DNA from: Patescibacteria group bacterium | GTDB lineage: Bacteria > Patescibacteriota > Doudnabacteria > UBA920 | Assembly (NCBI GenBank): GCA_036726225.1 | Contig: DAIMCS010000005.1 | Span: 3,808 to 67,807 of the forward strand | DNA: 64,000 nt | Direction of reading: 5' to 3' | In this document: one piece after another, positions 7,816-63,388 of the stretch | Position numbering within the stretch: position 1 is the first letter of the stretch | How the letters are laid out: each line of letters begins with the position of its first letter | Notes under the pieces: model-generated | The model's database searches: none | What the model was told of the DNA's origin: nothing | What the model saw: only the letters and a program-made list of their open reading frames with translations | Program-made: the position numbers and the translations under genes

Positions 7816-7848
7816 CCCCTCCCTAGCCCTCCCCAAACTTGGGGAGGG
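7816..7848. repeat. GC-rich palindromic mini-repeat, family 1 (CCCTCCC...GGGGAGGG), copy a; supplies the SD for the PEPC gene
   Basis: cccctccctagccctccccaaacttggggaggg matches the copies at 10203, 14579, 62964 and 63354. GGGGAGGG lies 8 nt upstream of ATG 7857. Confidence 0.6.
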
Positions 7849-9620: not shown

Positions 9621-10604
9621 ATGAAACTCCTAATAGTCGGTTCAGTCGCATACGATTCCATAAAAACGCCTTTTGGCAAGGCTAATAAAACCCTAGGCGG
9701 CAGCGCCACGTATTTTTCTTTGGCCGCGAGCTTTTTTACCAAACCTTCTCTGGTAGCTGTAGTTGGGCAGGATTTTAAAGATGAAGAAGTATTTAAACGC
9801 CTGGGGATAAACATTAGTGGGTTGGAAAAACAACCAGGCAAAACTTTTGCCTGGGGAGGGGAATATAGTTTTGATTTAAACTCCAGGAAGACTTTGTTTA
9901 CTCATTTGAATGTGTTTGAAAATTTTAAGCCAAAATTATCATCGGATCACAAAAAATCAAAATTTGTTTTTTTGGGCAACATCCACCCATCCCTTCAGCT
10001 GGATGTTTTAAAGCAGGTTAATGCGCCTAAATTTGTTGGGCTGGATACTATGAATTTGTGGATAGAAAAAACTTTAAAAGATTTGAAAACCGTTTTAAAA
10101 AAAGTTGATATTTTAATAATAAACGATTCAGAAGCGCGGGAGTTATCGCGGGAACATAATTTGCTGAAAGGCGCTAAAAAAATTCTGTCGCTAATGCAAT
10201 CACCCTCCCCTAGCCCCTCCCATCAAGGGAGGGGAACCAAAAACATTCCCTCCCCTAGAGGGGGAGGGTTAGGGAGGGGTGAAAAAATTGTGATCATCAA
10301 ACGCGGCGAATTCGGTTTGCTCATGTTCCAAAAAGGAAACATTTTCCATCTTCCCGGCTATCCGCTTGAAGATGTGGTTGACCCCACCGGTGCGGGCGAC
10401 AGCTTTGCCGGCGGGTTTTTTGGCTATTTGGCCAAGACCGATGATATTTCCTGGCCAAACCTAAAAAAAGCATGCGTCGCAGGCTCGGTTATGGCTTCTT
10501 TTTGTGTGGAAAAATTAGGGACTAAAAGGCTATTAGAAATTAAAAGCTTAGACATAACCCAAAGGCTAAAAGATTTTAAAACATTGACTCATTTTGAAAT
10601 TTAG
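9621..10604 (+). CDS. PfkB-family carbohydrate kinase (ribokinase-like) carrying an in-frame repeat-derived insertion
   Basis: DPTGAGDSFAGGF anion-hole motif. GC-rich repeat family 1 at 10203-10282 is in frame and encodes SPSPSPSHQGRG...GGGLGRGEK. Confidence 0.75.
   Translation: MKLLIVGSVAYDSIKTPFGKANKTLGGSATYFSLAASFFTKPSLVAVVGQDFKDEEVFKRLGINISGLEKQPGKTFAWGGEYSFDLNSRKTLFTHLNVFENFKPKLSSDHKKSKFVFLGNIHPSLQLDVLKQVNAPKFVGLDTMNLWIEKTLKDLKTVLKKVDILIINDSEARELSREHNLLKGAKKILSLMQSPSPSPSHQGRGTKNIPSPRGGGLGRGEKIVIIKRGEFGLLMFQKGNIFHLPGYPLEDVVDPTGAGDSFAGGFFGYLAKTDDISWPNLKKACVAGSVMASFCVEKLGTKRLLEIKSLDITQRLKDFKTLTHFEI
10203..10282. repeat. GC-rich palindromic repeat family 1, copy b (two tandem units) inside the PfkB coding sequence
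   Basis: ccctcccctagcccctcccatcaagggaggggaa followed by ccctcccctagagggggagggttagggaggggtg. Matches 14579-14614 almost base for base. Confidence 0.7.
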
Positions 10605-14513: not shown

Positions 14514-14616
14514 CCCTCCCCCTTGCCTGCCTACCGCAGGCAGGTGGGGAGGGCAAGGGAGGGGGTAAAAGCATCCGCCACCCTCCCCTAACCCCTCCCA
14601 TCCAGGGAGGGGAATT
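14514..14616. repeat. GC-rich palindromic repeat family 1, copy c (composite, two hairpins) between convergent genes
   Basis: ccctcccccttgcctgcctaccgcaggcaggtggggaggg... then accctcccctaacccctcccatccagggaggggaa. Confidence 0.7.
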
Positions 14617-17073: not shown

Positions 17074-18624
17074 CTAGCTTGTCATATTCTTGGGGCGTAG
17101 CCAAGCGGTAAGGCACGGGCCTTTGAAGCCTGCATTCCCAGGTTCGATCCCTGGCGCCCCAGCCAAGACAAAACTTAGGTTAGTTTTAGAGAAATTTTTT
17201 CGTGCGACGCAGAGCGTCGCCCATTGTTTTACGGGGGATTCTTCAACTTTTTTATTTCGCAAAATCAGGTTCGAGCCGAAGATTTTTTGGAGGGAGGATT
17301 TTTTGGAGGGGAGGTCGTCTCCTTTTGCTATTTCGTCTAGCGTTGAAGCGTCCTTTATCCACTCTCGCATAGGTTCGAGCCACAGACTTCCCCCTCTTTG
17401 CGACTTGGCCAGAACTTCCTCAACCGATCTCTTTTCGGACATAGCCTCTCGCTTCTTGGCGAGGTAGGTTTCTCGGTCTATGTCCTGTTCAACAAAGAGG
17501 TCGGTAAGGCGGTCTATCTTGGCGTTAAAGACGCTTAATCGCTCCCGTAAGCTGTGGACTAAGGTTGCCGTAGTCTTGGAGCTACCTTTCTCGTCCTCGT
17601 CTGCGAGAGCCAATAACCCTTGCGTCCAATCGCTCGGCATTGCGTAATGTGTGAGTATTTCGGATAGGTCGGCGGCGAGGACTTCTTCTCTCACAAAAGG
17701 TTGAGAGCAACGAGCCGCCGATTTTTTTGTACAGCGATAGTAGATGTGGCCTTTCTGCTCCTCTGCGGTTATGCCCATACCGCACTCCCCGCAACGCAAA
17801 AGCCCACAAAAGGCTTTCGGTTCTTTATCTTTTCTCATTGGATGTCCACGACGGACAATTACGATCTGAACTTTATCAAAAAGGTGTTTGTCTATGAGTG
17901 GCGTATGTTTGCCCTCGTACATTTCGCCAGCGTAGCGGAAATGTCCGTAGTAAAAAGGATTAACGAGAATAAATCTTATTCTGTCTTTATGTATGGCGTT
18001 GCCATTTAAACTCTTAACCCCGTTTTCAAAAAGGAATGTAGAAATATCTTCAAGACGAGAGTTGCCTTTAGCGTAAAGCTCAAAGGCGGCTCTGATAAAT
18101 TTCGCTTTCTTCCGATCAACGACTATCGTCTTTGCTCGCACATCATTGAGGTAGCCAACGGGAGCAGTGCCGGGAAACTGTCCGAGCCGTGCCTTATGAT
18201 GTAGCCCTCGGCTTGTATTGGAGCTTAGGTCACGGATAAATTGGTTAGCCATACCAAACTCAACCGACATCATAAGTACATTGTCGTTTGAGAGATGGCT
18301 TCTGTCGTGCGTTTGAATACGCTGAATCGTCCCCTGTTGGAGTAGCCAACTGATCTGTCCGCCGTCCACGGGATTACGAGCCAAGCGATCTAGCTTCCAA
18401 CAAATAATGCCCTGTGCCTCGCCAGTCTGTATGCGTAGGAGCATATCGTTAAAGATCGGGCGACCGGGCATTTTTGCAGTTCGCTTTTCTACAAATTCGG
18501 CCGCAACTTCTAAGCCCTCGCTTTTCGCAAGCGAACGAAGTTCGTCTAATTGACCTTCGATGGAGAGGACTTGTTTATCCTCGACATCAGTAGATTTTCT
18601 AGCGTAAAGAAAGTATCTATTCAT
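17074..18624 (-). CDS. Large serine recombinase (integrase/resolvase family)
   Basis: N-terminal YARKSTD...Q catalytic Ser motif. Recombinase domain. CxxC...C zinc ribbon and coiled coil. ATG at 18624 (MNRYFLYARKST); the track start at 18702 is upstream. The 3' end reads across attL into the tRNA. Confidence 0.85.
   Translation of the reverse strand: MNRYFLYARKSTDVEDKQVLSIEGQLDELRSLAKSEGLEVAAEFVEKRTAKMPGRPIFNDMLLRIQTGEAQGIICWKLDRLARNPVDGGQISWLLQQGTIQRIQTHDRSHLSNDNVLMMSVEFGMANQFIRDLSSNTSRGLHHKARLGQFPGTAPVGYLNDVRAKTIVVDRKKAKFIRAAFELYAKGNSRLEDISTFLFENGVKSLNGNAIHKDRIRFILVNPFYYGHFRYAGEMYEGKHTPLIDKHLFDKVQIVIVRRGHPMRKDKEPKAFCGLLRCGECGMGITAEEQKGHIYYRCTKKSAARCSQPFVREEVLAADLSEILTHYAMPSDWTQGLLALADEDEKGSSKTTATLVHSLRERLSVFNAKIDRLTDLFVEQDIDRETYLAKKREAMSEKRSVEEVLAKSQRGGSLWLEPMREWIKDASTLDEIAKGDDLPSKKSSLQKIFGSNLILRNKKVEESPVKQWATLCVARKNFSKTNLSFVLAGAPGIEPGNAGFKGPCLTAWLRPKNMTS
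17091..17165 (+). tRNA. tRNA-Gln (anticodon UUG)
   Basis: 75 nt. Near-identical in arms to E. coli tRNA-Gln (TGGGG...GCCAAGCGGTAAGGCA...TTCGAnTCC...CCCCAGCCA). Anticodon loop CUUUGAA. Encoded CCA. Confidence 0.85.
17162..17317. repeat. IR-A (left terminal repeat of the element, about 156 bp)
   Basis: Reverse-complement match to 24641-24805, with one roughly 30-bp divergent patch. Confidence 0.8.
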
Positions 18625-18684: not shown

Positions 18685-18891
18685 ATGAAAAGTGAAGCCC
18701 AAAAATTAGGCGATAATCTAAAACGAATAAGAACAGAGAAAGATATATCGCAGGGAGATATTGCACGAGCCTTAGAAGTGGATAAGAGTTTTGTCAGTAA
18801 TATAGAAAACGGCAAGACTAACCCGACACTTGCGACGATTGCAAAGATAGCAAAGGCAATCGGTGTTTCGGTTGATGAGTTATTAAAGTAA
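18685..18891 (+). CDS. XRE-family HTH transcriptional regulator
   Basis: Classic HTH_3: ISQGDIARALEVDKSFVSNIENG. Confidence 0.8.
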   Translation: MKSEAQKLGDNLKRIRTEKDISQGDIARALEVDKSFVSNIENGKTNPTLATIAKIAKAIGVSVDELLK

Positions 18892-18896
18892 AAATT

Positions 18897-20429
18897 ATGG
18901 CGACTTTAAATTGGATAGGAAAAGAAGCAGTAGTGAATCACGATAAAGAAGTGCCTTTTAAACTGCTCCAAAAAGTGCCGAGTGCTTCGGTGGGTAAGGA
19001 ATCAAAAAACCTTATCATTCACGGAGATAATCTTGAAGCTCTAAAGGCACTTATACCTTTTTATAAAAGTAAGGTGAAGTGCATTTATATTGATCCACCT
19101 TACAACACAGGCAACGAGGGTTGGGTATATAACGACAAAGTTAATTCTCCCAAAATCCAAGAATGGATTAAGAAGGTTGTTGGACGAGAGGGAGAAGATT
19201 TGACCCGCCACGATAAATGGATATGTATGATGTATCCAAGAATGAAGTTGCTACGCGACTTACTTGCAAACGATGGTGTAATTTTCGTAAGTATTGATGA
19301 CAACGAACAGCACTATCTAAGAATGGTTATGGACGAGATTTTTGGCGAAAAAAACTTTGTTGCTGACTTCATTTGGAATCACAGGAAATCAGGTCAAAAT
19401 GATATTGATGTATCTTTGTCTCATAATTATACGCTCTGTTATGCAAAAAAAAGAGCTGGACTCTTTTTGAATCGTCTCGCTATTGATGAAGGAAAGTTTT
19501 CTAATCCAGATAGCGATCCACGGGGCGATTGGGTTGCCGACCCTATGGACGCCCCCGCAATCCGAGAAAATTTAATGTATCCAATCATTAACCCAAATAC
19601 GAAACAAACATTTTTACCCCCTGTTGGGAGACATTGGCGATTTACTAAGGAAAAATACGAACAAGCGTTGAAGGATAATAGAATTGTTTTCGGGAAAACT
19701 GGCAAGTCCAAACCACAATTCAAACGCTTTAAAAGCGAAGCAGAGGAAAAAGGCATAAATGTTTTTACTATTTGGGACGATGTAGGAACTGCAACAGAAG
19801 GAACAAAAGAAATAATGGAGCTTTTTGGTGGAAAAAAAATCTTTGATACTCCTAAGCCAACTTCGTTTATTAAGAAAATTATTAAAATTGCTACGAAAGA
19901 TAATTCAATCGTATTGGATTCTTTTGCTGGTTCTGGGACAACTGGACACGCCGTTTTGGATTTAAATAAAGAAGATGGAATCAAACGCAGTTTTATTTTA
20001 GTAGAAATGGAAAATGATGTTGCTAAGAAAATTACCGCCGAGCGTATAAAGAGGGCTATCAAAAAGTATAAATATGATGACGGCTTTGAATATTGCGAAC
20101 TAGCCAAACCGCTTTTCAATGAGAAAGGGCAAATCAATGAGCAATGCACATATGGAGAACTTGCTACTTATATTTATTTTACCGAGACGCGAACAAATGC
20201 GGAAAAGAAGACTATCAAGTCGCCATTCATAGGAGAAAGTGGAGGCGTTTCTTACTACCTTATTTATGAAGGCAGAGATAAGAACGATCTCACTCGTTCA
20301 GCCCTTACGAAGTTGAAAATAAAGAAGCCAGCCGTAGTTTATGCGGATCGCTGTTTGGTGGACGAAGATGAGTTAAGAGAAAAAGGGATTGTATTCAAAC
20401 AAATCCCATACGAGATAAAAGTTTACTAA
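18897..20429 (+). CDS. Type III restriction-modification methyltransferase (Mod, N6-adenine, beta class)
   Basis: DPPYN motif IV precedes FAGSGTTG motif I (permuted order). The adjacent Res helicase-nuclease supports the call. Confidence 0.8.
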   Translation: MATLNWIGKEAVVNHDKEVPFKLLQKVPSASVGKESKNLIIHGDNLEALKALIPFYKSKVKCIYIDPPYNTGNEGWVYNDKVNSPKIQEWIKKVVGREGEDLTRHDKWICMMYPRMKLLRDLLANDGVIFVSIDDNEQHYLRMVMDEIFGEKNFVADFIWNHRKSGQNDIDVSLSHNYTLCYAKKRAGLFLNRLAIDEGKFSNPDSDPRGDWVADPMDAPAIRENLMYPIINPNTKQTFLPPVGRHWRFTKEKYEQALKDNRIVFGKTGKSKPQFKRFKSEAEEKGINVFTIWDDVGTATEGTKEIMELFGGKKIFDTPKPTSFIKKIIKIATKDNSIVLDSFAGSGTTGHAVLDLNKEDGIKRSFILVEMENDVAKKITAERIKRAIKKYKYDDGFEYCELAKPLFNEKGQINEQCTYGELATYIYFTETRTNAEKKTIKSPFIGESGGVSYYLIYEGRDKNDLTRSALTKLKIKKPAVVYADRCLVDEDELREKGIVFKQIPYEIKVY

Positions 20430-39756: not shown

Positions 39757-40071
39757 TTACAGACCCTTTATTTGGGGATATTTTGCCTCAAGTCCCTCCA
39801 AAATTTTAAGTGTTACCGCCTGGGAAAGCCCGCTGAATTCATGTGTCAAAGCTTTTAGCACCATTGCAAAATCACCTGAAATTCCAAAAGCCCTGCCATC
39901 TTCGGCCAACTTTAAACCCACAACCTTGCGAGCCGTGTCCAAAGCAATGTTTGGACCCAAAACCAGCATTTGCTTTTGGATGAATTCAGTAAGTATTTTT
40001 TCGTTTTCCTCCGAACCGGCCATATTTTGTTTCAAAAGCCCTTCCTTATTTTTCTCTCCCAAAAGCACCAT
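39757..40071 (-). CDS. Hypothetical protein
   Basis: ORF. The SD is provided by the adjacent family-2 repeat. Confidence 0.4.
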   Translation of the reverse strand: MVLLGEKNKEGLLKQNMAGSEENEKILTEFIQKQMLVLGPNIALDTARKVVGLKLAEDGRAFGISGDFAMVLKALTHEFSGLSQAVTLKILEGLEAKYPQIKGL

Positions 40072-40080
40072 TCTTTATTT

Positions 40081-40166
40081 CCTTCTCCCTTTGGGAGAAG
40101 GTGGTCCGCCTCTGGCGGACCGGATGAGGGTTGGGAGAGATGTCGCCGTAGGCGACAGAGAGGGCT
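40081..40166. repeat. GC-rich palindromic repeat family 2 (CCTTCTCCCTTTGGGAGAAGG + GGTCCG...CGGACC), copy f
   Basis: Matches 47534-47590 with a changed loop. Contains three stem-loops. Confidence 0.7.
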
Positions 40167-40260
40167 TTTTAATAGTTTTTTCAATTTTATTATAGCATAA
40201 ATTGACTAAAAACAAAAAAGCCCCTTAAAGGACTTTTTTTATTTGAACCGGCTTTTTATA

Positions 40261-40449
40261 TTAGTTAGGTCGATTGCGTTCTAAAAGGTCGAAACCGGCT
40301 GCTGTCTTAGCATCATCATCTTCTTTTGCCTGAACGTCATTGGAAACTGCAGCTGCCTTATCAATATTATCAGAATGCATTTTAGCGTAATCCGGAGTTC
40401 CGCTTGGGTCTACCAAACCATCTTCAATTTTTATTCCTCTTGATCCCAT
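40261..40449 (-). CDS. Small acidic hypothetical protein
   Basis: ORF only. Confidence 0.2.
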   Translation of the reverse strand: MGSRGIKIEDGLVDPSGTPDYAKMHSDNIDKAAAVSNDVQAKEDDDAKTAAGFDLLERNRPN

Positions 40450-40500
40450 AATATTATAAAATTAATAATACAATTATATTATAACATATTTTTAATTTGG

Positions 40501-41787
40501 CTATTTCTCTTTTATCCTCCCAAACCCCACCGACTCCTGGAAAGCGTCTTTGGCTGCTAAAATTGGCACGCGGCAAATGGTAAAATCGCCGTATTTGGCG
40601 TTAATGCTGTCTAAAGCCGTAACCAATCCTTTCAGCCGTTTTTCATGGCCAAACAAACTTAACTGGTTTACGTAAGGCTTGAGTCCTGCCACGGTTACGC
40701 CAATTAATTTAAATTCGCCGGGCTGCATGGAAAAATTTTCAAAAATTTTCATACACTGCAAAAAAATTTCCCGGCCGTCGTAAACGTAAAAACCCAATTT
40801 TAAACTTTTGCCAAAACCATTATAGTCTTTGTCATGTAAGTAAAAATGAATAACGTTACCCATAAGCTCTTGTTTGCGCAGGCGCTTTGCCACCATTTCG
40901 CAAAGTTTATACAGCACGGGCACAAAAACTTTTTTCTCCCTAAACTGGGTGGGCAAAGTATACATATGGCCAATGGATTTTATTTGCTCGTCCAGTTCCA
41001 CTTTGGGTTTGAAGCTGCCCTCCAGCTGCCCCATTTTGTGCAAATGGTAGCCTTGGATGGCGCCAAAAGCATTTATAAGCCAGCTAAGCGGATAATTTTT
41101 TAAATCCGGCAAAGTCTTAATGCCGAGCCTGTTTAAGTTTTTTTCCTGCCTGTGGCCTATGCCGGGAATGTCTGTAAGTTTAAGCTGATTATAAAGATCG
41201 GCCTTAGATAAAATCCGGCACCCTTCACTTACAACCCGTAACCCGTCACTAATAACCACCAACCCGTCCGGTTTTTGCATATCCGAGGCAATTTTGGCAA
41301 GCAATTTATTTTCCGCAATGCCAATTGAGCAGGTAAGCCAGTCCCCAACTTCTTTTTTCATTCTGCGTTTAATTTCTTTGGCAATACTCACCGCTTCCTC
41401 AAATGGGTTACTGTCCACTGTCCACTGATCACTGATCACTTTTTTTATATTACACGCCTTGCTCATGTCTGCAAACAACTCGTCTATGCTGTATTGCTCC
41501 ACAAACGCCGTGTAATCGCTTACGACTTTAATTACGCGATTTATATACATACGATAACGGCCCGGGCTGGTTTTGGTTAAAATAATTTTTGGATAAAGCC
41601 TGCGCGCTTCCCATACCGGCGTGCCGGTTTTTATGCCCCAGCGTTTAGCTTCTACACTGGCAGCGATAATGATTCCGCCTAAATGTTCGCACACGCCCAA
41701 AGGCTTTCCGCGCCAGGCAGGGTTGTCCTGCTGCTCAACCGTGGCAAAATAGCTGTTCATATCGAGATGGAAGATGACGGAAGGCAT
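40501..41787 (-). CDS. dinB: DNA polymerase IV (Y-family, DinB-like)
   Basis: HLDMNSYFATVEQ N-terminus. IMS/UmuC domain layout. Confidence 0.8.
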   Translation of the reverse strand: MPSVIFHLDMNSYFATVEQQDNPAWRGKPLGVCEHLGGIIIAASVEAKRWGIKTGTPVWEARRLYPKIILTKTSPGRYRMYINRVIKVVSDYTAFVEQYSIDELFADMSKACNIKKVISDQWTVDSNPFEEAVSIAKEIKRRMKKEVGDWLTCSIGIAENKLLAKIASDMQKPDGLVVISDGLRVVSEGCRILSKADLYNQLKLTDIPGIGHRQEKNLNRLGIKTLPDLKNYPLSWLINAFGAIQGYHLHKMGQLEGSFKPKVELDEQIKSIGHMYTLPTQFREKKVFVPVLYKLCEMVAKRLRKQELMGNVIHFYLHDKDYNGFGKSLKLGFYVYDGREIFLQCMKIFENFSMQPGEFKLIGVTVAGLKPYVNQLSLFGHEKRLKGLVTALDSINAKYGDFTICRVPILAAKDAFQESVGFGRIKEK

Positions 41788-41883
41788 AATAATAAACTTA
41801 TTAATTGATAACTAATAACTTCTTATTGGTTATCAATTATAAATTATCAGTTACTTAATGGTATACTATCGTTCACCTTATTG

Positions 41884-41922
41884 TCAAACAAAAAATCCGG
41901 CCTTTTTTAGGCCGGATAATTT
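41884..41922 (-). terminator. Intrinsic terminator
   Basis: aaaaaatccggcc-tttttt-aggccggat. Confidence 0.5.
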
Positions 41923-41928
41923 TGATAT

Positions 41929-42327
41929 TTAATGTTTCTTATGCCCGTGCGCCTGAGCGTGAAATTCATGGCGCACCTGGATATGCCGCTTTTTGTGGAC
42001 CAGGAAAATAACCACGTTCATAACTCCCAAACTCGCCCAATAGCTAACGTCGGAAAAAATATCCAGACCCGTAATTAGGCTTGTAATAAGCAAGTCGGAA
42101 AAAGCGTCGCCCACACTCCAGACAATCATAACAAAAACTGCTTCCATATAATTTATTACGCCCAAACGCCTGACCATTGCAGCGGCGACTATGGCCGTTG
42201 CCGTCCAAAAAGCAATGGCTTCCACTCCCCCATTTGTAAAAATATCGTAATTAAAATAACAAATTTTTAGCGCGGTAAAAAAGACCCACTGTAAAAAAGC
42301 TATGAGTAAAAAATTCTTGGTGTTCAT
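41929..42327 (-). CDS. Multi-TM membrane protein (possibly MreD-like), hypothetical
   Basis: Four hydrophobic segments. Downstream of mreB. Confidence 0.35.
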   Translation of the reverse strand: MNTKNFLLIAFLQWVFFTALKICYFNYDIFTNGGVEAIAFWTATAIVAAAMVRRLGVINYMEAVFVMIVWSVGDAFSDLLITSLITGLDIFSDVSYWASLGVMNVVIFLVHKKRHIQVRHEFHAQAHGHKKH

Positions 42328-42330
42328 ATA

Positions 42331-42894
42331 CTAAACCCCGACAACCGTTTTCTTTTTGGGCGCTTTTTTGCGCACCACTTTTTTCCCGCCCAAAGACAGC
42401 CCGCCCCTGGCGGACTTTTTTTGCGGCTCAAGGGCCGGGGGCTCTATAATAGTCGGACTTATAATAGTTTCTTCTATTATGACAGGCCGGCTTTGCTGGG
42501 GTTCTTCTGAAATTGCGTCGGCAATTTCTCCAACCTGCTCAGCGTCCTGGGCCAGCCTTTCTTTGGCAATGGCCAGCATTTCTTTTAACTTCTCGTTATT
42601 GTCGGAAAAAACTTTTGTGGACAAATGGTTAAAAAATCCGCCGTGTGTTTTTTCTTCGTACACTCTGTTAAACCAGGAAACCCCCAGCCAAATTCCGTAC
42701 CAAACGCCCATCATTAAAACAAGAATTAAAGTAAAATACTCTACTGCTAAAAATTCTCTGTAGTTTAGGTTGATGTTAATAGTTCCAATAGCAACAAGGT
42801 ATAGGAATATAAACACTATAACCCGGTGGAGAATTAAAAACAGCAACGCACCCAAAAGGGCACTTAAAAAAATATATAAAGATTTGTGAGCCAT
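42331..42894 (-). CDS. Membrane protein with a C-terminal basic tail, hypothetical
   Basis: Multiple TM segments. Lys/Arg-rich C-terminus. Confidence 0.35.
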   Translation of the reverse strand: MAHKSLYIFLSALLGALLFLILHRVIVFIFLYLVAIGTININLNYREFLAVEYFTLILVLMMGVWYGIWLGVSWFNRVYEEKTHGGFFNHLSTKVFSDNNEKLKEMLAIAKERLAQDAEQVGEIADAISEEPQQSRPVIIEETIISPTIIEPPALEPQKKSARGGLSLGGKKVVRKKAPKKKTVVGV

Positions 42895-42974
42895 TTTTGT
42901 TTCTTAAAGACTTTTTATTGTTTTATTTATTATAACAAAACCAAAACTTCGATGCAAATTTTTAAACCAAAAAG

Positions 42975-43991
42975 CTATTTTGCGCTTAAAATGCTTCGTT
43001 TGTAGCTGTCTAAATTGTCCAATGCCACGCCCGTACCTTTGGCTACGCACAAAAGCGGCTCTTCAGCCACAAAACACGGCACGCCCACGGCCCCGGCAAT
43101 GTAATGGTCCAAATTTCGCAAAAGCGCCGTGCCCCCTGTCATAACCATACCTTTGTCTATAATGTCAGAAGCCAGCTCAGGCGGAGTTTCCTGGAGCACA
43201 ATTTTAACCGCTCTGGCAATTTCCGACAATTCGTCGGAAATTGCCTGCACTACGTCGTTGGTGGAAACAGTCACAGTCTTAGGCAGTCCCGTTAAATTGT
43301 CGCGGCCTTTTATTTCCATAAGCTCCTCTTCGTTAAGCCCCAAAGCGCTGCCAATTGTAATTTTTATTTCTTCTGCTGTCCTGTCCCCAATAGCAAGGCC
43401 GTATCGTTTTCTTACAAATTCTATTATGGACTGGTCCAAACGGTTGCCGGCAACGCGAACTGAAGTAGAGTTAACAATGCCGCCCAGGGAAAGCACGGCT
43501 ACATCTGTAGTGCCGCCGCCTATATCTATAACCAAATTACCGCGCGACTCCGCAATAGAAATGCCCGCGCCAATTGCCGCGGCAACAGTTTCTTTAATTA
43601 CAAAAGCGGCTTTAGCGCCGGCAGCAACGGCCGCATCTATTACCGCACGCCTTTCAGTAGAAGTAATTCCGCCGGGCACGCTTATCATAACTTCCGGCCT
43701 GAAAAACCGAATGTTGCCCAAAGCTTTATTTATAAAATACCTAAGCATAGCTTCCGTAACTCTGTAGTCCGCAATTACCCCGTCTTTCATAGGGCGGCTG
43801 GCCACTATAGTTTCCGGAGTTCTGCCCAACATTTCTTTTGCTTCCTGGCCTACGGCTAAAACCCGGTTGTCCTCTACCGAAATGGCAACCACTGTGGGTT
43901 CGTTTATTATAATGCCTCTCTTAGGAACGTAAACTAGTGTGTTGGCTGTGCCTAAATCTATGCCTATTTTTGTCTCAAACATACATCGCAA
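42975..43991 (-). CDS. mreB: Rod-shape-determining actin homolog MreB
   Basis: IGIDLGTANTLVY phosphate-1 motif. MreB length. Confidence 0.85.
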   Translation of the reverse strand: MRCMFETKIGIDLGTANTLVYVPKRGIIINEPTVVAISVEDNRVLAVGQEAKEMLGRTPETIVASRPMKDGVIADYRVTEAMLRYFINKALGNIRFFRPEVMISVPGGITSTERRAVIDAAVAAGAKAAFVIKETVAAAIGAGISIAESRGNLVIDIGGGTTDVAVLSLGGIVNSTSVRVAGNRLDQSIIEFVRKRYGLAIGDRTAEEIKITIGSALGLNEEELMEIKGRDNLTGLPKTVTVSTNDVVQAISDELSEIARAVKIVLQETPPELASDIIDKGMVMTGGTALLRNLDHYIAGAVGVPCFVAEEPLLCVAKGTGVALDNLDSYKRSILSAK

Positions 43992-44139
43992 ATCTTGCGG
44001 ATTTTAATAAATCGGGGATATCTCGCGGATCTGCGTAATTCCCGCGCTGACATCCGCGTGTTTTCCGCGGTTGGATAACCATTATAACAAACTGCTGCTA
44101 GTTGTAAAAGACCGCCACTTGAGATAAGATTATTCTAAT

Positions 44140-45435
44140 ATGACCAAAAAGTCTCGTTACCTGTTGCTTTTAGCAGGCTTTATAGCCTTCCTCATTGCGG
44201 CTCCGCTAATGGTGCTTTATGTTCAGGGCATTAGCGTAGATTTTACCAACCGAAGCTTTATTCAAACCGGAATCCTCACAGCCAAAACTGAACCTAAAGA
44301 TGCGGAAATTTATTTAAACGGCGAGCTGGCGCGTAAAAGTAACGGCAGCATTAGGTTCTTAATGCCTTCCGAATACAAGGTGGAAATTAAAAAAGAAGGC
44401 TACCTTACCTGGGCAAAACGCTTAAAAATTCAAAGCGCCGAGGTGACGGCCGCCAACCCGCCTTTTAACAATATTTATCTTTTTTACCAGGACCCGAAAG
44501 TTAAAACAATAGAAAGCCGGGTTGTAGATTTTTACCATGGCCAAAATGCTTTGGGGTTTTTAACCCAAAACGATTTTGTGGTAATACCTGCCGACGGGGA
44601 CACGGTGAGAACCGACAACCGCCATGTGCTGCCTAAAATGGTGAATAAAATTTTGGCTGTGGATGCCGATGAAAATAATTTCCTGCTTGGCGACGGCGTC
44701 CGGACTATGCTGGTTTTCAATGCCGATTCCGAAGAATTTTACGACATTAGCAGCATAGTCAACAACGAGGCTAAAATGCAGCTTGCCTCAAGCGGCAAGC
44801 TCTATGCCCAATTCAAAGACGTTTTATACGAAATTAACCCGCAAAGCAAAACCATAAAACCCATACTTTCTTCGGTCAAAGCTTTTTTTCTGCTGGAAAA
44901 CGACCTTTACTATATTAAAGAAGACGCCCAGAGCGGTTTGACGCTCTTTGTCACGCCCTCTCCCTTTAGCCAAAACCAAACGCTTATAAATGACATCCCG
45001 CAATTTTCACAAGGCCAACTGTTTGTGACCTTTGAAAAACAAATTTTCCTGCTTGGCGACGGCAGCCTGTACCGCATAAGTATGGATTCAAAAAAAATTC
45101 AAAGCAACGTGAGTGATTTTAGTTTTGATGCAGCCAATTCCACCTTGGCGGTTTTGTCTGCGGGCGAATTTGATTACATAAGCGGTATGGACAAAAATTT
45201 AAACGTGGTCACCAGGAGCGCTGAAACAATTAAAAATTTAAGCATAAGCCACCACGCCTATTATGGATTCTATTTAAAAAACGGCTCTGTCACGGCGGTG
45301 GAGTTGGACACTAGAGATACCCAAAACACTTACACTTTATATTCCGGCCAAGCCGAAAAATTTAGTGTGGACGACGAAGCAAAAAATATTTGGGTTTTAG
45401 ACGGAGGCGAACTCAAACTAATAGCAATTAGGTAA
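44140..45435 (+). CDS. PEGA-domain membrane-anchored protein
   Basis: N-terminal TM, then AEIYLNGE...GSI...YKVEIKKEGY PEGA motif. Confidence 0.55.
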   Translation: MTKKSRYLLLLAGFIAFLIAAPLMVLYVQGISVDFTNRSFIQTGILTAKTEPKDAEIYLNGELARKSNGSIRFLMPSEYKVEIKKEGYLTWAKRLKIQSAEVTAANPPFNNIYLFYQDPKVKTIESRVVDFYHGQNALGFLTQNDFVVIPADGDTVRTDNRHVLPKMVNKILAVDADENNFLLGDGVRTMLVFNADSEEFYDISSIVNNEAKMQLASSGKLYAQFKDVLYEINPQSKTIKPILSSVKAFFLLENDLYYIKEDAQSGLTLFVTPSPFSQNQTLINDIPQFSQGQLFVTFEKQIFLLGDGSLYRISMDSKKIQSNVSDFSFDAANSTLAVLSAGEFDYISGMDKNLNVVTRSAETIKNLSISHHAYYGFYLKNGSVTAVELDTRDTQNTYTLYSGQAEKFSVDDEAKNIWVLDGGELKLIAIR

Positions 45436-45838
45436 TTCCCAAAGCTTCGTCTATTGCCCGGTTAACCAGTTTGTCCGCCTGTTTATTTAACTCTCTTACA
45501 ACGTGGGTAAACCCCACGTTTTTAAATTTGTTTGTAAGTTTAAAAACTTCCTGGGCCAAAAGTTTTAAAGTCGGCTCTTTAATTTTATACTGGCCAAGCA
45601 TTTGCCTAACTATTAACTCGGAATCCATATTTATTTGCAAATTCTCCCCTCCTAACTCCAAAGCTTTTTTTAGCGCTAAAATTAACGCGCGATATTCAGC
45701 AACGTTGTTGGTAGTTTCGCCAATATACTCTTTTAGTTCAGCCAGGTTCTTGCCGGATGCATCTTTAATAACCGCTCCGATGCCGGCCGGACCGGGGTTG
45801 CCTCTTGCACCCCCATCTGTAAAAATAGTTAGGTTCAT
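45428..45838 (-). CDS. rnhA: Ribonuclease HI
   Basis: TDGGARGNPGPAG and the DEDD catalytic pattern. Confidence 0.8.
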   Translation of the reverse strand: MNLTIFTDGGARGNPGPAGIGAVIKDASGKNLAELKEYIGETTNNVAEYRALILALKKALELGGENLQINMDSELIVRQMLGQYKIKEPTLKLLAQEVFKLTNKFKNVGFTHVVRELNKQADKLVNRAIDEALGIT

Positions 45839-45898
45839 ATTTTATAATTTATTATACTACCATTCTAATATCTAAACCAAAACTTCGCTGCTAAAATC

Positions 45899-47662
45899 TT
45901 AGGATGCCTTTACATCAACTATTCTTAGCTTAAGGTTTTTGCTTCCGTTCCATCCGTCTTCTATTAATTCGCAGGCTATGTCCACGTTAGTAATTTGTAA
46001 TGGTTTAAAGTTAAATGCTATGGCAGAAAAGGTGGAATTATTTAACCCTAAATTTAGCTGCAGGTGCTGACTTTGCGTCCCCACTTGCCGCTGCGACAAA
46101 ACCTTGGCTGCCTTAACCAAAAATTTGGGCTTAGGGTTACCAACTCCAAAAGGTTCTAAATTTTTAATTTGTTCCAAATTTTCCACATTTATGTCAAAAG
46201 CCTGAAGCTCGGCCTCCAGCTCTAAAACTTTATCTGCGTTAGTTTCATTAATGTGCAAATCTGCATGCTCTAAAATTTTTTGGTAAAACAAATCGAACTT
46301 GGAAATTTCTACCGTCAAACCGGCAGCTTGTTTGTGTCCGCCAAACTTCACTATGTGTTCAGAACTGAATTTTAAGGCCTCAATTAAGTTAAATTCCCCG
46401 GCGGTCCTGGCCGAACCTGTGCACAAATTTTCCGTCTGCTCCAGCACAATTACGGGCTTAAAATACTCCTCCGCAAGCCTGCCGGCCACAAGCCCCATTA
46501 CACCCTTAGGCCAGCCCTGCCCGACCATAACCAGGACTTTCCTGTCCATTAGCATTATGGCTTTTTCCTTAGCCTCGCTTAAAACGGTCTGGGTGAGCTG
46601 CTGGCGGCGTTGGTTTATTTGTTCCAGCCTGGCTGCTTTTTCTTTTGCCAAAAAAGGATTTTGCTCCAGCAGCAAATCTAAAGCAATCCCCGCGTGCTCA
46701 AGCCGGCCGGCGGCATTCAAGCGGGGCGCAATTACAAAACCCAACGTATAAGTGTCAGGCAGCTTTTGGCTAAAATCCAACCCACCGGCCTGGGCCAAAG
46801 CTTTCAGGCCAATCCACTTTGTCTTAGCCAAAACTTTAAGCCCGTATTTTACAAGGATACGGTTTTCTCCAAGCAAACTATGGCAGTCAGCCACAGTGCC
46901 TATTGCCACAAGATCCAGCAGCCACTTCTCGTATCCTTCGGCATATTTTGGAACCTGGAGTTTGGTTCTTGGATCTTTCAAAATAGCACACGCAAGCTTA
47001 AAAGCCACACCCACCCCTGTAATTTCCCTGTACGGATAACTATCGTTACCATTTTTGGGATTAATTAACGCATAAGCGTCCGGCTCCTGCCCAATTATTT
47101 CGTGGTGATCGGTTATTATAAAATCTATGCCGCGGGCTTTGCACCAATCCGCCGCATCTATAGAGTTAGTTCCGCAATCCACGGTAATAATTATTTTTGC
47201 CCCATTTTGGGCAATTTTTTCCAAAGCTTCAATGTTTACCCCGTAGCCTTCGGAAAAACGGTCCGGGATGTAGCTGTCGGCTTCCACGTCTAAAAAATTA
47301 AAAGTTTGCCTAAGTACCGCATTGGCCGTGACCGCGTCTGCGTCGTAGTCGCCGTAAATGCAAATTTTTTCGCGGTGGTTAATTGCCTGCCAAATCCTGT
47401 CCACGGCCTGTTGCATATCCTTAAAAAGAAAAGGGCTGTGTAACTTTTCATAAGTCGGGTTTAAAAAATCGGCTACTTGATCTTTATTGCTTAGTCCGCG
47501 GTTATAAAGCAGCTGCGATAGCAGCTCCAAATTTCCTTCTCCCTTTGGGAGAAGGTGGTCCGTCGACTGACGGACCGGATGAGGGGTCTGTAACAAAAAA
47601 TTTACGATCTCTATCCCTTTTTCCTGAGGAATTTGCGATTTTAGTTTCCAAAGTTTTGGCAT
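45899..47662 (-). CDS. recJ: Single-stranded-DNA-specific exonuclease RecJ; N-terminus contains an in-frame family-2 repeat
   Basis: DHH motifs DCGTNS and TDHHE plus a DHHA1 domain. The repeat at 47534-47590 encodes ...HLLPKGEGNLELL. Confidence 0.8.
   Translation of the reverse strand: MPKLWKLKSQIPQEKGIEIVNFLLQTPHPVRQSTDHLLPKGEGNLELLSQLLYNRGLSNKDQVADFLNPTYEKLHSPFLFKDMQQAVDRIWQAINHREKICIYGDYDADAVTANAVLRQTFNFLDVEADSYIPDRFSEGYGVNIEALEKIAQNGAKIIITVDCGTNSIDAADWCKARGIDFIITDHHEIIGQEPDAYALINPKNGNDSYPYREITGVGVAFKLACAILKDPRTKLQVPKYAEGYEKWLLDLVAIGTVADCHSLLGENRILVKYGLKVLAKTKWIGLKALAQAGGLDFSQKLPDTYTLGFVIAPRLNAAGRLEHAGIALDLLLEQNPFLAKEKAARLEQINQRRQQLTQTVLSEAKEKAIMLMDRKVLVMVGQGWPKGVMGLVAGRLAEEYFKPVIVLEQTENLCTGSARTAGEFNLIEALKFSSEHIVKFGGHKQAAGLTVEISKFDLFYQKILEHADLHINETNADKVLELEAELQAFDINVENLEQIKNLEPFGVGNPKPKFLVKAAKVLSQRQVGTQSQHLQLNLGLNNSTFSAIAFNFKPLQITNVDIACELIEDGWNGSKNLKLRIVDVKAS
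47534..47590. repeat. GC-rich palindromic repeat family 2, copy g (inside the recJ 5' coding region)
   Basis: ccttctccctttgggagaaggtggtccgtcgactgacggaccggatgagggg. Confidence 0.7.
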
Positions 47663-57809: not shown

Positions 57810-58169
57810 CTACGGTCGAGATGGTGGGAATGTTTGATTTTTCTTTCTAAAATGTCTTACTAAACTTAAAATGATCAAGGAGATGGCTATCCAAAACAAA
57901 GTGTCTAAAGAGTACGCGCGAAAATATCCTGGCTCAGTATAAAATGGCGGTTTTATATCATAGCATGGGTCGCAGATTACTCTCGATACTGAGAAGGGCC
58001 ATCCAATTTGCTGCTTTACATTAACCCATACTGAAGGATCTATTAGAAAAGTACCGTCCGCGCTTTGGTCTCTATAACTTAAATTGAATACAAAAAAATT
58101 TATCGCCACCCCAAGTACCAAACCCCAACCTACCAAATGTTTTTTTGTTTCCAAACTAAAGATTTTCAT
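57810..58169 (-). CDS. MKIFSLETKKH-family small membrane protein, member 2
   Basis: Paralogous to 55094-55453. Confidence 0.45.
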   Translation of the reverse strand: MKIFSLETKKHLVGWGLVLGVAINFFVFNLSYRDQSADGTFLIDPSVWVNVKQQIGWPFSVSRVICDPCYDIKPPFYTEPGYFRAYSLDTLFWIAISLIILSLVRHFRKKNQTFPPSRP

Positions 58170-58423
58170 ACTTTTTGTTTTCTAAGATGTCTTAATAGAC
58201 TTAAAACAATAAAAGCTACGAGAATCCAAAATAACAAATCTAAATTTTGATTATTGAAAGGCCAACTCAAACTTTCCAAGCAATCGATCTGGTCATTAAT
58301 TATTGAAGCGCAATTATACCTATTTTGAAGTGCTTTAAAGGTAATTGCATAATTAATAAAAACACCCAATAAAAGACTCCAAATTACTAAATGTTTTTTT
58401 GTTTCCAGGCTAAAAATTTTCAT
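58166..58423 (-). CDS. MKIFSLETKKH-family small membrane protein, member 3
   Basis: Tandem paralog with an overlapping stop/start. Confidence 0.45.
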   Translation of the reverse strand: MKIFSLETKKHLVIWSLLLGVFINYAITFKALQNRYNCASIINDQIDCLESLSWPFNNQNLDLLFWILVAFIVLSLLRHLRKQKV

Positions 58424-58674
58424 ACAGAGCCTTTATTTCTAAAATGCTTTACTAAACTTAAAATTCCCAAAAAAATCAGAAACCAAAAAATAAAACTGAA
58501 AAATAAGGAGCTAAACGGCCAATATGCCTTAAGCGCCTGGTCGCAAGAATTGGTTACTACGCAATTGTTATGCTGCCATGATCTTTTAAAAGAAATAATA
58601 TTATTTATAGCAACGGACAAACCAGCGCTCCATCCCAACAAATGCCTAATTGTCTCCAAACTAAAAAAGTTCAT
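58420..58674 (-). CDS. MKIFSLETKKH-family small membrane protein, member 4
   Basis: Tandem paralog starting MNFFSLETIRH. Confidence 0.45.
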   Translation of the reverse strand: MNFFSLETIRHLLGWSAGLSVAINNIISFKRSWQHNNCVVTNSCDQALKAYWPFSSLFFSFIFWFLIFLGILSLVKHFRNKGSV

Positions 58675-58763
58675 AGACTTTCATTATTACTCTCCCCAAT
58701 TTATGGGGAGATGTCCCGACATCAGTCGGGACAGAGGGGTTAAGCTAAAGCATTAACCTCTCC

Positions 58764-62547: not shown

Positions 62548-62591
62548 TTCTGTAGTCATCTGTAGTAATTTATAGCTTTTGTAGTTTATTC
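62548..62591. promoter_or_regulatory. Conserved CTGTAG triple-repeat motif (copy 2), overlapping the ruvX stop
   Basis: Matches 55587-55630. An inverted partner ctacagataactacag sits at 62499-62514. Confidence 0.4.
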
Positions 62592-62962
62592 CTACTATCC
62601 AAATAATTTTGCAACAAAATTTGTGCTGCTAAACTGTCCAGATCTTTTTTACCACCGCTGATATTTTCCGCCATAGCCGATGATAAGCGCTCGTCAGTAA
62701 TATCTATTTTAATATCTATTAATTTCTCCAATTTCTCTTTGAAAGCTTTCACCTCTTCCGTTTTTTTTGTTTCCTGTCCACTCATATTTAGCGGCCAGCC
62801 TAGAACAATTTGTGATACCTGATTTTCGTCGATGACCGATTTTATAGTTTCCCAAAATTCTTTTGGTGAAAGTATTTTAAGCTCTCTGGCAAACGTCAAA
62901 GATTCGTCGGAAATTGCCAAACCAATCCTTTTTTCACCAAAATCAATTCCAAGGGTTTTCAT
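62570..62962 (-). CDS. ruvX: Holliday-junction resolvase-like YqgF/RuvX
   Basis: LGIDFGEKRIGLAISD N-terminus. Confidence 0.85.
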   Translation of the reverse strand: MKTLGIDFGEKRIGLAISDESLTFARELKILSPKEFWETIKSVIDENQVSQIVLGWPLNMSGQETKKTEEVKAFKEKLEKLIDIKIDITDERLSSAMAENISGGKKDLDSLAAQILLQNYLDSRNKLQKL

Positions 62963-63351
62963 ACTCCCCTCCCCTTATTAATAAGGGGAGGTTGGGAGGG
63001 GATATTCTTTATTTCCTGGATTATCCTCTCAACAACTCCTTCTAAATTGTTTAATACTTCGTTATCGTAAAACCTCAGTACACTTATATTTTTGGAATTA
63101 AAAAATCGGGTTCTATTTTTGTCATAAGTAATGTTGTCTTTTTGCATATGCTGACTACCGTCTAACTCTACTGCCAACCTTAAAGACGGACAATAAAAGT
63201 CGGCTATAAATTTTCCCACACTATATTGCCTTGTAAATTTAAAACCCATAATTTGATTTCTTCTTAATACTGACCACATTTTTCTTTCGGCATCTGTGGA
63301 ATTATTTCTCAATTCTTTTCTGAAACCTTTTAAAATTTTATCCTGATACAT
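62959..63351 (-). CDS. DUF559 (Vsr-like endonuclease domain) protein, selfish-type insertion
   Basis: FYCPSLRLAVELDGSQH pattern of DUF559. Flanked by GC palindromes at both ends. Confidence 0.65.
   Translation of the reverse strand: MYQDKILKGFRKELRNNSTDAERKMWSVLRRNQIMGFKFTRQYSVGKFIADFYCPSLRLAVELDGSQHMQKDNITYDKNRTRFFNSKNISVLRFYDNEVLNNLEGVVERIIQEIKNIPSQPPLINKGRGV
62964..63002. repeat. GC-rich palindromic repeat family 1, copy d (encodes the DUF559 C-terminus; supplies the SD for ruvX)
   Basis: ctcccctccccttattaataaggggaggttgggaggggat. Confidence 0.6.
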
Positions 63352-63353
63352 AT

Positions 63354-63388
63354 CACCCCCTAACCCCCTCTTATTATAAGAGGGGGAA
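63354..63388. repeat. GC-rich palindromic repeat family 1, copy e (upstream of the DUF559 start)
   Basis: caccccctaaccccctcttattataagagggggaa. Confidence 0.55.

Follow-up and report, generated by a model that had tools for sequence, protein, structure and literature searches.

How does a palindromic repeat come to lie in frame within a conserved gene, and to what class of repeat does it belong? These questions are raised by a stretch of 64,000 nucleotides from a Patescibacteria group bacterium of the Doudnabacteria (contig DAIMCS010000005.1, positions 3,808 to 67,807 of the forward strand; referred to here as the window), in which a repeat of about 50 nt occurs once in the N-terminal part of recJ (copy g) and once in front of a small gene upstream of a histidine kinase gene (copy f). 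An earlier note on this DNA had treated the two copies as a second palindromic repeat family, had proposed that recJ either starts downstream at a non-ATG codon or tolerates an N-terminal insertion, and had credited copy f with supplying a Shine-Dalgarno (SD) sequence. Both copies proved to be real and to lie where they had been placed, with a common core of 50/51 nt. The evidence set out below suggests that they are very probably members of the BoxC / PIT / TM intrastrand triplex motif class, in a hairpin-bearing variant, and that recJ would be read straight through copy g.

Copies f and g are identical in their three 9-nt boxes and first loop, and each carries an inner hairpin of 8 bp (Table 1). 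Their identity is 100% across 32 nt (40077-40108 vs 47531-47562) and again across the final 15 nt, and the inner stems differ by a single compensatory pair (C-G to T-A). The 21-nt hairpin core was found at two sites only in the window, with 0 expected (100 shuffles). In both copies CCTTCTCCC ttt GGGAGAAGG constitutes a perfect 9-bp hairpin, and in computed folds each strand of each copy gave two neighbouring hairpins (about -19 kcal/mol, z -5.9 to -6.9); nearest-neighbour folding yields just these two hairpins, Hoogsteen triples being outside its scoring. The extent to 40166 previously given for copy f was too generous, as 40133-40166 is not common to copy g and belongs to an outer element.

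The arrangement of the boxes suggests a fold of higher order. The pyrimidine (Y) box pairs with the purine (R) box over a 3-nt loop, and the third box, a purine box which is the mirror of the second, could lie antiparallel on the second; because of this mirror symmetry it could dock there in triples of the G*G-C, A*A-T and T*A-T kinds. This is the layout of an intrastrand triple helix of class II (purine motif); in the f/g subfamily an 8-bp stem-loop has taken the place of the 3 nt that usually separate the second and third boxes. When GGATGAGGG was read 3'->5' on GGGAGAAGG with a purpose-written three-box finder, 0 reverse-Hoogsteen mismatches were encountered in f and in g, all triples being allowed ones (G*G-C, A*A-T and one T*A-T).

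The window was scanned for pyrimidine/purine hairpins and then with the three-box finder, which returned 10 matches in 64 kb, each combination of an overlapping pair being tallied on its own; in each of 30 dinucleotide shuffles it returned 0. One plan is common to at least nine elements of the window: a Y box, a loop of 3-7 nt, a complementary R box, a spacer and a mirror purine box. In most of them the spacer is TAG, TAA or TTG, but a hairpin takes its place in f, g and the element at 58691. The label of a second family therefore does not hold for f and g: because the plan is shared and it is the spacer that differs, what had been taken for a first and a second family represents variation on a single architecture.

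Table 1. Three-box elements of the window and the genes and signals discussed with them; positions count from the first letter of the window.
Feature	Coordinates	Strand	Description
Copy f	40081-40130	+ (G-rich strand)	50 nt, in the 5' leader of the small gene (- strand)
Copy f, Y box	40081-40089	+	CCTTCTCCC, followed by TTT
Copy f, R box	40093-40101	+	GGGAGAAGG, followed by T
Copy f, inner hairpin	40103-40121	+	GGTCCGCC TCT GGCGGACC
Copy f, RH (mirror) box	40122-40130	+	GGATGAGGG
Copy g	47535-47585	+ (G-rich strand)	51 nt; recJ codons 26-43 on the - strand
Copy g, Y box	47535-47543	+	CCTTCTCCC, followed by TTT
Copy g, R box	47547-47555	+	GGGAGAAGG, followed by T
Copy g, inner hairpin	47557-47576	+	GGTCCGTC GACT GACGGACC
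Copy g, RH (mirror) box	47577-47585	+	GGATGAGGG
Outer element enclosing copy f	40053-40164	+	Its two outer boxes pair around copy f when 40050-40170 is folded
Outer element, first box	40053-40060	+	TCTCTCCC, then a 72-nt first loop with copy f and ATG 40071
Outer element, second box	40133-40140	+	GGGAGAGA
Outer element, hairpin	40141-40157	+	TGTCGCC GTA GGCGACA
Outer element, mirror box	40157-40164	+	AGAGAGGG
Element	7816-7848	-	Canonical loop: CCCTCCCC aagttt GGGGAGGG cta GGGAGGGG
Inverted element pair	10203-10234 and 10248-10280		In frame inside PfkB-family kinase gene 9621-10604
Element	14581-14612	-	Between convergent adenosine deaminase and EamA genes
Element	58691-58745	+	TCTCCCC aatttat GGGGAGA TGTCCCGAC atcag TCGGGACA GAGGGG; hairpin in second loop
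Element	62968-63003	+	Encodes the C-terminal tail of a DUF559 open reading frame; GGGGAGG 5 nt before ruvX ATG 62962
Element	63352-63386	-	Mirror box abuts ATG (63351) of the DUF559 gene
recJ	45899-47662	-	587 aa; DHH, DHHA1 and RecJ_OB domains; start ATG 47662
Small gene	39757-40071	-	Longest open reading frame, 104 codons from ATG 40071; upstream of histidine kinase gene
Candidate extended -10	40189-40197	-	TGcTATAAT; conserved 5' of the small gene in the window and in related loci L003 and L007

The same plan has been described in Escherichia coli and 262 proteobacterial genomes (3610 copies) for the repeat named BoxC / PIT / TM_ECO (Holder et al. 2015, NAR 43:10126; PMC4666352), the earlier names BoxC and PIT being cited there from Bachellier (1990s) and Hoyne & Maher (2000). 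Its consensus is CCCTCNCCC N3-6 GGGNGAGGG N3 GGGNGAGGG, with an antiparallel third stem (G*G-C, A*A-T, T*A-T) allowing at most one mismatch and a second loop of the TTA or CCG type; the isolated G-rich strand formed a triplex in vitro by circular dichroism (CD) and nuclear magnetic resonance (NMR), and the motif is associated with local genomic instability (PMC4666352). The elements of the window resemble it in the order of C-rich box, short loop, complementary G-rich box, spacer and mirror G-rich box, in boxes of 9 nt, in the T*A-T "mismatch" at the matching position (GGGTGAGGG or GGATGAGGG), and in being dispersed, multi-copy, often paired or nested, and free of an associated transposase. 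A C-rich stem of about 9 nt with a first loop of 3 nt, a mirror stem with 0 mismatches and a copy number far above chance were all found.

If copy g belongs to a dispersed class of repeats, how is it accommodated in recJ? The closest relatives of the encoded protein are RecJ proteins of Candidatus Doudnabacteria, and residues 1-23 (MPKLWKLKSQIPQE...; MPKLWKLK..IPQE) are conserved in orthologs with and without an insert at the site of copy g. In the window and ten orthologs, the inserts measure 33, 33, 33, 33, 33, 42, 48, 48, 51, 75 and 105 nt, all multiples of 3 and stop-free, that of the window being the one of 51 nt. In an AlphaFold2 model of RecJ (mean predicted local distance difference test score, pLDDT, 89.7), residues 4-25 are confidently placed (strand 4-7, helix 13-25), the next helix spans residues 45-54, and the score falls below 50 solely at residues 31-42; alignment with the solved RecJ 8y30 begins at query residue 47 (chain residue 30). 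Because the N-terminus is conserved and the frame kept, and in view of the model and of the 8y30 alignment, the start of recJ is placed at ATG 47662 with the repeat translated. A downstream non-ATG start is needless, and of the two explanations first offered it is the tolerated N-terminal insertion which agrees with these observations. Copy g, which the earlier note had assigned to about codons 24-42, would thus appear in RecJ as an 18-residue loop, TPHPVRQSTDHLLPKGEG, probably disordered, at the surface between the N-terminal strand and helix and the first conserved helix, and RecJ seems to tolerate it.

An in-frame TTG or ATG 4-13 nt past the R box, present in most orthologs, was considered as an internal start and rejected, because the TTG after the repeat encodes the conserved first Leu of the LLAQLL helix, which is present in insert-free orthologs too; there this Leu is coded as TTG (one ortholog) or as CTG/CTT (others). 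Elsewhere in the orthologs, three more insertion hot spots were observed, after query residues 234, 297 and 540, at which the peptides resemble translations of other palindromic repeat families, e.g. SFRAVASESRNPL...GRDD and RRHSDPERSEGEESQ...ILRSAQDDA.

A block at exactly the site of copy g was present in about 23 of about 110 full-length Doudnabacteria RecJ orthologs, which are 57-70% identical to the query. The filled proteins read NPHP..(variable)..PLPxGEG or a decayed form of it and the remainder LSxYPxLL; the distribution is patchy, most orthologs being without the block. DNA of the site was compared for ten filled and three empty alleles (related loci are numbered with the prefix L). 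Each of the ten filled alleles is a three-box element at the DNA level, in constant orientation and frame. The copy of L005 reads CCCTCACCC cga CCCTCTCCC aga GGGAGAGGG in coding sense, and its G-rich strand, CCCTCTCCC tct GGGAGAGGG tcg GGGTGAGGG, is the exact published consensus, which the copies of L011 and L003 also fit apart from loop 2. The second loop is 3 nt in L004, L005, L007, L008 and L011, and a hairpin or longer insert (12 to 75 nt) in L003, L002, L006, L009 and the window. Repeat-free relatives with the same N-terminal residues, which the earlier note had named as the finding that would speak against it, did not turn up among these orthologs: where relatives have similar residues (NPHP..PLPEGEG), the DNA holds the same repeat, and at least L004, L005 and L009 have such repeats in other genes too.

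Substitutions within the boxes were found to be coupled. Among the ten orthologs, the synonymous change of GAG to GAA in the R box is always paired with CCT to CTT in the Y box, which replaces Pro by Leu (3/3 vs 7/7), and at the same three loci the third box has changed from CAC to CAT (3/3 vs 7/7); likewise, GGA to GGG in the R box is always accompanied by CTC to CCC in the Y box, which replaces Leu by Pro (3/3 vs 7/7). Codon third positions just outside the boxes vary freely. As pairing is kept at an amino-acid cost, an explanation at the level of the protein is strongly disfavoured, and the covariation shows that the elements are held at the nucleic-acid level and are not protein motifs.

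Further in-frame elements were found in enolase (L004:7293-7325, L005:6450-6482, L009:7270-7338), where they are read in another frame (TLTP..SQRERE), in RNase H (L004:12204-12239, L005:12252-12287) and in a second RecJ loop in mid-recJ (L001:10652-10687); the enolase and RNase H copies occupy orthologous positions in the relatives. Every single in-frame copy has the C-rich strand in mRNA sense, as do 9 of 11 independent transcribed sites, an orientation bias relative to transcription which is suggestive only (about p = 0.07, not significant).

The subfamily with a hairpin extends well beyond the Doudnabacteria. The pattern CCCTCAYCC N10-40 CCYTCTCCC NNN GGGAGARGG was found in at least 120 stretches of metagenome contigs, and all counts given here and below for metagenome and viral copies are among the matches listed. 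Most of the metagenome contigs have 55-70% GC; one, L040, is Acidobacteriota-like by a neighbouring gene and carries CCCTCATCC GGTCCTTCGGGCCA CCTTCTCCC AGA GGGAGAAGG, that is, the boxes of f and g. A hairpin of at least 4 bp occupies the second loop in 103 of 113 copies with a simple second loop, and 110 of these 113 have one of the covarying triples C/C/G or T/T/A, the latter in 41. Composite copies, in which the first box comes from a neighbouring element (40/153), have lost this association and serve as an internal control. At least 120 viral contigs of IMG/VR (L134-L213 and other loci) also contain the three-box motif, and some of them may be proviruses with host flanks; here C/C/G was counted in 94 + 38 copies, T/T/A in 2 + 13 and other combinations in 4, with T/T/A nearly confined to the long second loop (13/54 vs 2/97). 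C/C/G or T/T/A was present in about 257 of the 264 copies scanned in the metagenome and viral sets together. Read on the G-rich strand, 58 of 103 copies have a GNA triloop as their inner loop (GAA in 39). GNA triloops form unusually stable, DNA-specific mini-hairpins, and their frequency is therefore a hint of a fold at the DNA level.

Several points weigh against assigning f and g to this class. The boxes CCTTCTCCC/GGGAGAAGG/GGATGAGGG are each one position off the consensus (C-G*G to T-A*A), the second loop is 20/21 nt with its 8-bp hairpin vs 3 nt in TM_ECO, and only two copies of the exact f/g subtype occur in 64 kb. The E. coli motif is reported to be always intergenic (PMC4666352), whereas copies here lie in frame in recJ, PfkB, enolase and RNase H; the host differs too, being a member of the candidate phyla radiation (CPR) with 42% GC. 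As for the third strand, no triplex footprint was reported in vivo in E. coli (PMC4666352), and at Y6/R4 the third box is unchanged in L006, L008 and L009, so that it follows the hairpin at one position only and the evidence for a third-strand constraint is partial; moreover, the two box variants could represent two amplified subfamilies and not many independent compensations. The elements have probably been copied or converted between sites, but since neither a mobilising enzyme nor a target-site duplication nor an empty-site junction turned up, we infer this copying step and do not observe it.

Alternative explanations start from these same observations. The recJ segment might be a selected protein motif (NPHP...PLPxGEG) of Doudnabacteria RecJ, the intergenic copy being incidental, which would account for a block kept at one site and in one frame in some 23 orthologs of 57-70% identity to the query and for four extra codons that the filled alleles share upstream of it. 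This is very improbable: the block is absent from most orthologs, including P0022, which is 86% identical to P0020 with a decayed block; of the paired changes that preserve the hairpin, one replaces an amino acid (P to L, L to P) and its partner is synonymous; identical nucleotides stand in copy f, within a 5' untranslated region (5'UTR), and are read in a different frame in enolase; and the segment is modelled at pLDDT <50. It is also unlikely, if less so, that the elements are non-autonomous transposable elements, akin to MITEs (miniature inverted-repeat transposable elements) or REPs (repetitive extragenic palindromes), served by a transposase elsewhere and with the recJ site as an insertion hot spot. 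The near-identity of f and g, the nesting of copy f within another element, the frequency of composite or paired copies (40/153) and the presence of the motif in at least 120 viral contigs all fit such an origin, and in relative L005 an IS200-like Y1 transposase exists. However, a tblastn search with this Y1_Tnp found no homolog in the window or in L001-L011 except itself, f and g have neither terminal inverted repeats beyond the hairpin nor flanking direct repeats (TTTATTT|...|TTGGGAG for f, CAAATTT|...|GTCTGTA for g), and no transposase or integrase remnants beside the E. coli copies, nor any phage link, have been reported (PMC4666352). The history of the recJ site speaks to both sides of this question. 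In a rough neighbour-joining tree of RecJ with the insert columns removed, filled alleles fell in at least five places (a clade of 12; query + P0002 + P0003; P0076 + P0020; P0007, P0013 and P0017 singly), as repeated insertion would predict; yet the four shared extra codons (I-I/V-x-x) lie outside the element, three codons upstream of it, and therefore favour common descent or allele exchange over repeated clean insertion. When identity before and after the insert was compared with the rest of the protein for P0007, P0013, P0017, P0076 and P0020, no clear recombination signal was obtained.

A role of the RNA has also been considered, in which the purine box would act as an SD-like sequence locked by the CCUCC-like box, possibly in a pyrimidine-motif RNA triple, and would tune initiation of translation downstream or pause ribosomes within recJ. 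R boxes do lie 5-9 nt before the candidate starts 7857 (phosphoenolpyruvate (PEP) carboxylase), 62962 (ruvX) and 40071, and the strand bias noted above points the same way; but that bias is not significant, the start that is conserved for the small gene lies 48 nt beyond 40071, the 58691 element is 16 nt from the ATG of its gene, GNA triloops on the G-rich strand favour DNA, and PIT elements in E. coli acted neither as promoters nor as terminators and left RNA polymerase unaffected (PMC4666352). We regard both the locked SD and the ribosomal pause as decidedly unlikely. Finally, the conserved feature could be a G-quadruplex, or an i-motif of the C-rich strand, as four G3 tracts joined by short loops occur in canonical copies such as GGGAGAGGG-N3-GGGTGAGGG and, in the window, in GGGAGGGG cta GGGGAGGG. 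In f, g and the T/T/A subfamily (41/113, 13/54), two of the tracts are cut to GG and copies so reduced still obey the mirror and hairpin rules, a 20-nt hairpin separates the tracts, and the published CD and NMR data on the E. coli motif indicated a triplex (PMC4666352); for the f/g subfamily the quadruplex was rejected on the grounds of its GG tracts, of the rules kept and of these data, and we give it hardly any credence in general.

Membership of the BoxC / PIT / TM class thus remains the preferred reading of f and g, and it leads to a further and more tentative one, namely that three-box elements are not junk but are retained by selection on their nucleic-acid fold. This we consider doubtful, though three observations are in its favour: the boxes recur in Doudnabacteria, in an Acidobacteriota-like contig and in many metagenome contigs of 55-70% GC, in addition to the published Proteobacteria; the third box varies in step with the hairpin, as the C/C/G and T/T/A counts above show; and the fold is kept at amino-acid cost in recJ, enolase and RNase H of species 57-70% identical to the query. 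If selection does act on the fold, the third strand would dock in cells, probably on transiently single-stranded DNA, because it is mostly the G-rich strand that serves as template for transcription and the inner loops are of the GNA triloop type; this would imply that the element has a conserved role in the cell or is copied by a conserved machinery. Natural covariation offers a comparative handle on the in vivo relevance of the third strand.

What, then, does copy f do in front of the small gene? By sequence comparison the small gene is a real, conserved gene, with homologs of 90 and 87 aa between dinB and a histidine kinase gene in L003 and L007. Proteins from both of these syntenic loci begin where that of the window has Met17, encoded by ATG 40023, and the start context there, AACAAAATATGGCC, is common to the window and L003. 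The true start is thus probably ATG 40023, 48 nt past ATG 40071, and because of these two observations it is more likely that copy f is a 5'UTR insertion and the in-frame ATG 40071 a by-product that lengthens the open reading frame (ORF) by 16 codons. The SD ascribed to copy f is accordingly correct as to position, GGGAGAAGG ending 9 nt before ATG 40071, and doubtful as to role. Copy f itself would be nested in the first loop of an outer element of the same three-box type. The conserved TGcTATAAT would place copy f inside the transcript leader; a promoter consensus scan did not call this motif because no -35 matches. A terminator-like hairpin of the gene upstream of the small gene is located at 40214-40239. 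At the gathering score, an Rfam search reported two tRNAs alone in the window, and nothing came near threshold at 39950-40300.

The remaining elements of the window occupy varied positions. In the 7816 element the R box on the + strand ends 8 nt upstream of in-frame ATG 7857 of the PEP carboxylase gene. The inverted pair in the PfkB-family kinase gene is translated as PSPSPSHQGRG...PSPRGGGLGRG, and the Pfam match of this protein is in two separate stretches. The element at 63352 is the sole gene-proximal copy with its G-rich strand in mRNA sense; the neighbouring DUF559 ORF (62959-63351) ends in the tail IPSQPPLINKGRGV, and its TGA overlaps the ATG of ruvX (62570-62962) as ATGA. An SD role for the 58691 element was withdrawn, as the nearby ATG opens a 7-codon ORF only; on the - strand (58675-58697), the R box lies 6 nt before that ATG and 16 nt before the ATG of ORF 58420-58674. 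A tandem array at 57810-58674 consists of three or four small paralogous ORFs (about 85-119 aa each) that recur every 254 nt or so; one of them was searched against Pfam without a match.

Other repeats were observed as well. Two pairs of long inverted repeats, 17161-17265/24702-24806 (105 nt, 100%) and 24792-25087/31013-31308 (296 nt, 99%), start directly after the tRNA at 17091-17162 and may mark about 14 kb of rearranged or mobile DNA; within the long inverted repeat there are direct motifs, TTTTTGGAGGGAGGATTTTTTGGAGGGGAGG, that are G-rich and SD-like (17284-17319/24639-24674). The IS200-like Y1 transposase gene (PF01797) of L005 lies at 18861-19535 and is preceded by a palindrome, GGCCATTGCTATATTGCAATGGCC.

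For annotation, these results mean that recJ starts at the upstream ATG, with 18 odd residues that are encoded by a repeat and are not an error, and that the small gene probably starts at 40023. Copy g shows in addition that such elements can sit inside essential genes.

Translated palindromes have a precedent in the Rickettsia palindromic elements (RPEs), which Ogata et al. reportedly described in 2000 as AT-rich, Rickettsia-specific elements of 100-150 bp lying in frame in conserved genes, where they are translated as tolerated surface insertions, and between genes. Like them, the present elements are palindromic, intergenic as well as in frame in conserved genes, and tolerated when translated; their length of 50 nt, mirror third box and different composition set them apart from RPEs by description. 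With REPs (20-40 bp) and the bacterial interspersed mosaic elements (BIMEs), they share the form of short, dispersed imperfect palindromes, often in inverted pairs; REPs, however, are extragenic, have a conserved GTAG-type head recognised by a RAYT transposase and lack a third mirror box, and no RAYT homolog was found in the window. Bacterial MITEs such as Correia, ERIC and Nezha, most often 100-400 bp long, differ by their terminal inverted repeats and their target-site duplications; the likeness here is that of small non-coding stem-loop repeats which land in 5'UTRs or in frame. It is with BoxC / PIT / TM_ECO that the agreement is closest, and a class described chiefly in E. coli, and there strictly from intergenic DNA, would thereby be extended into the CPR. 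Relative to the published account (PMC4666352), what is new is the host from the CPR, the subfamily with a hairpin together with its breadth, the in-frame copies at orthologous sites in core genes, and the covariation of three boxes in natural sequences.

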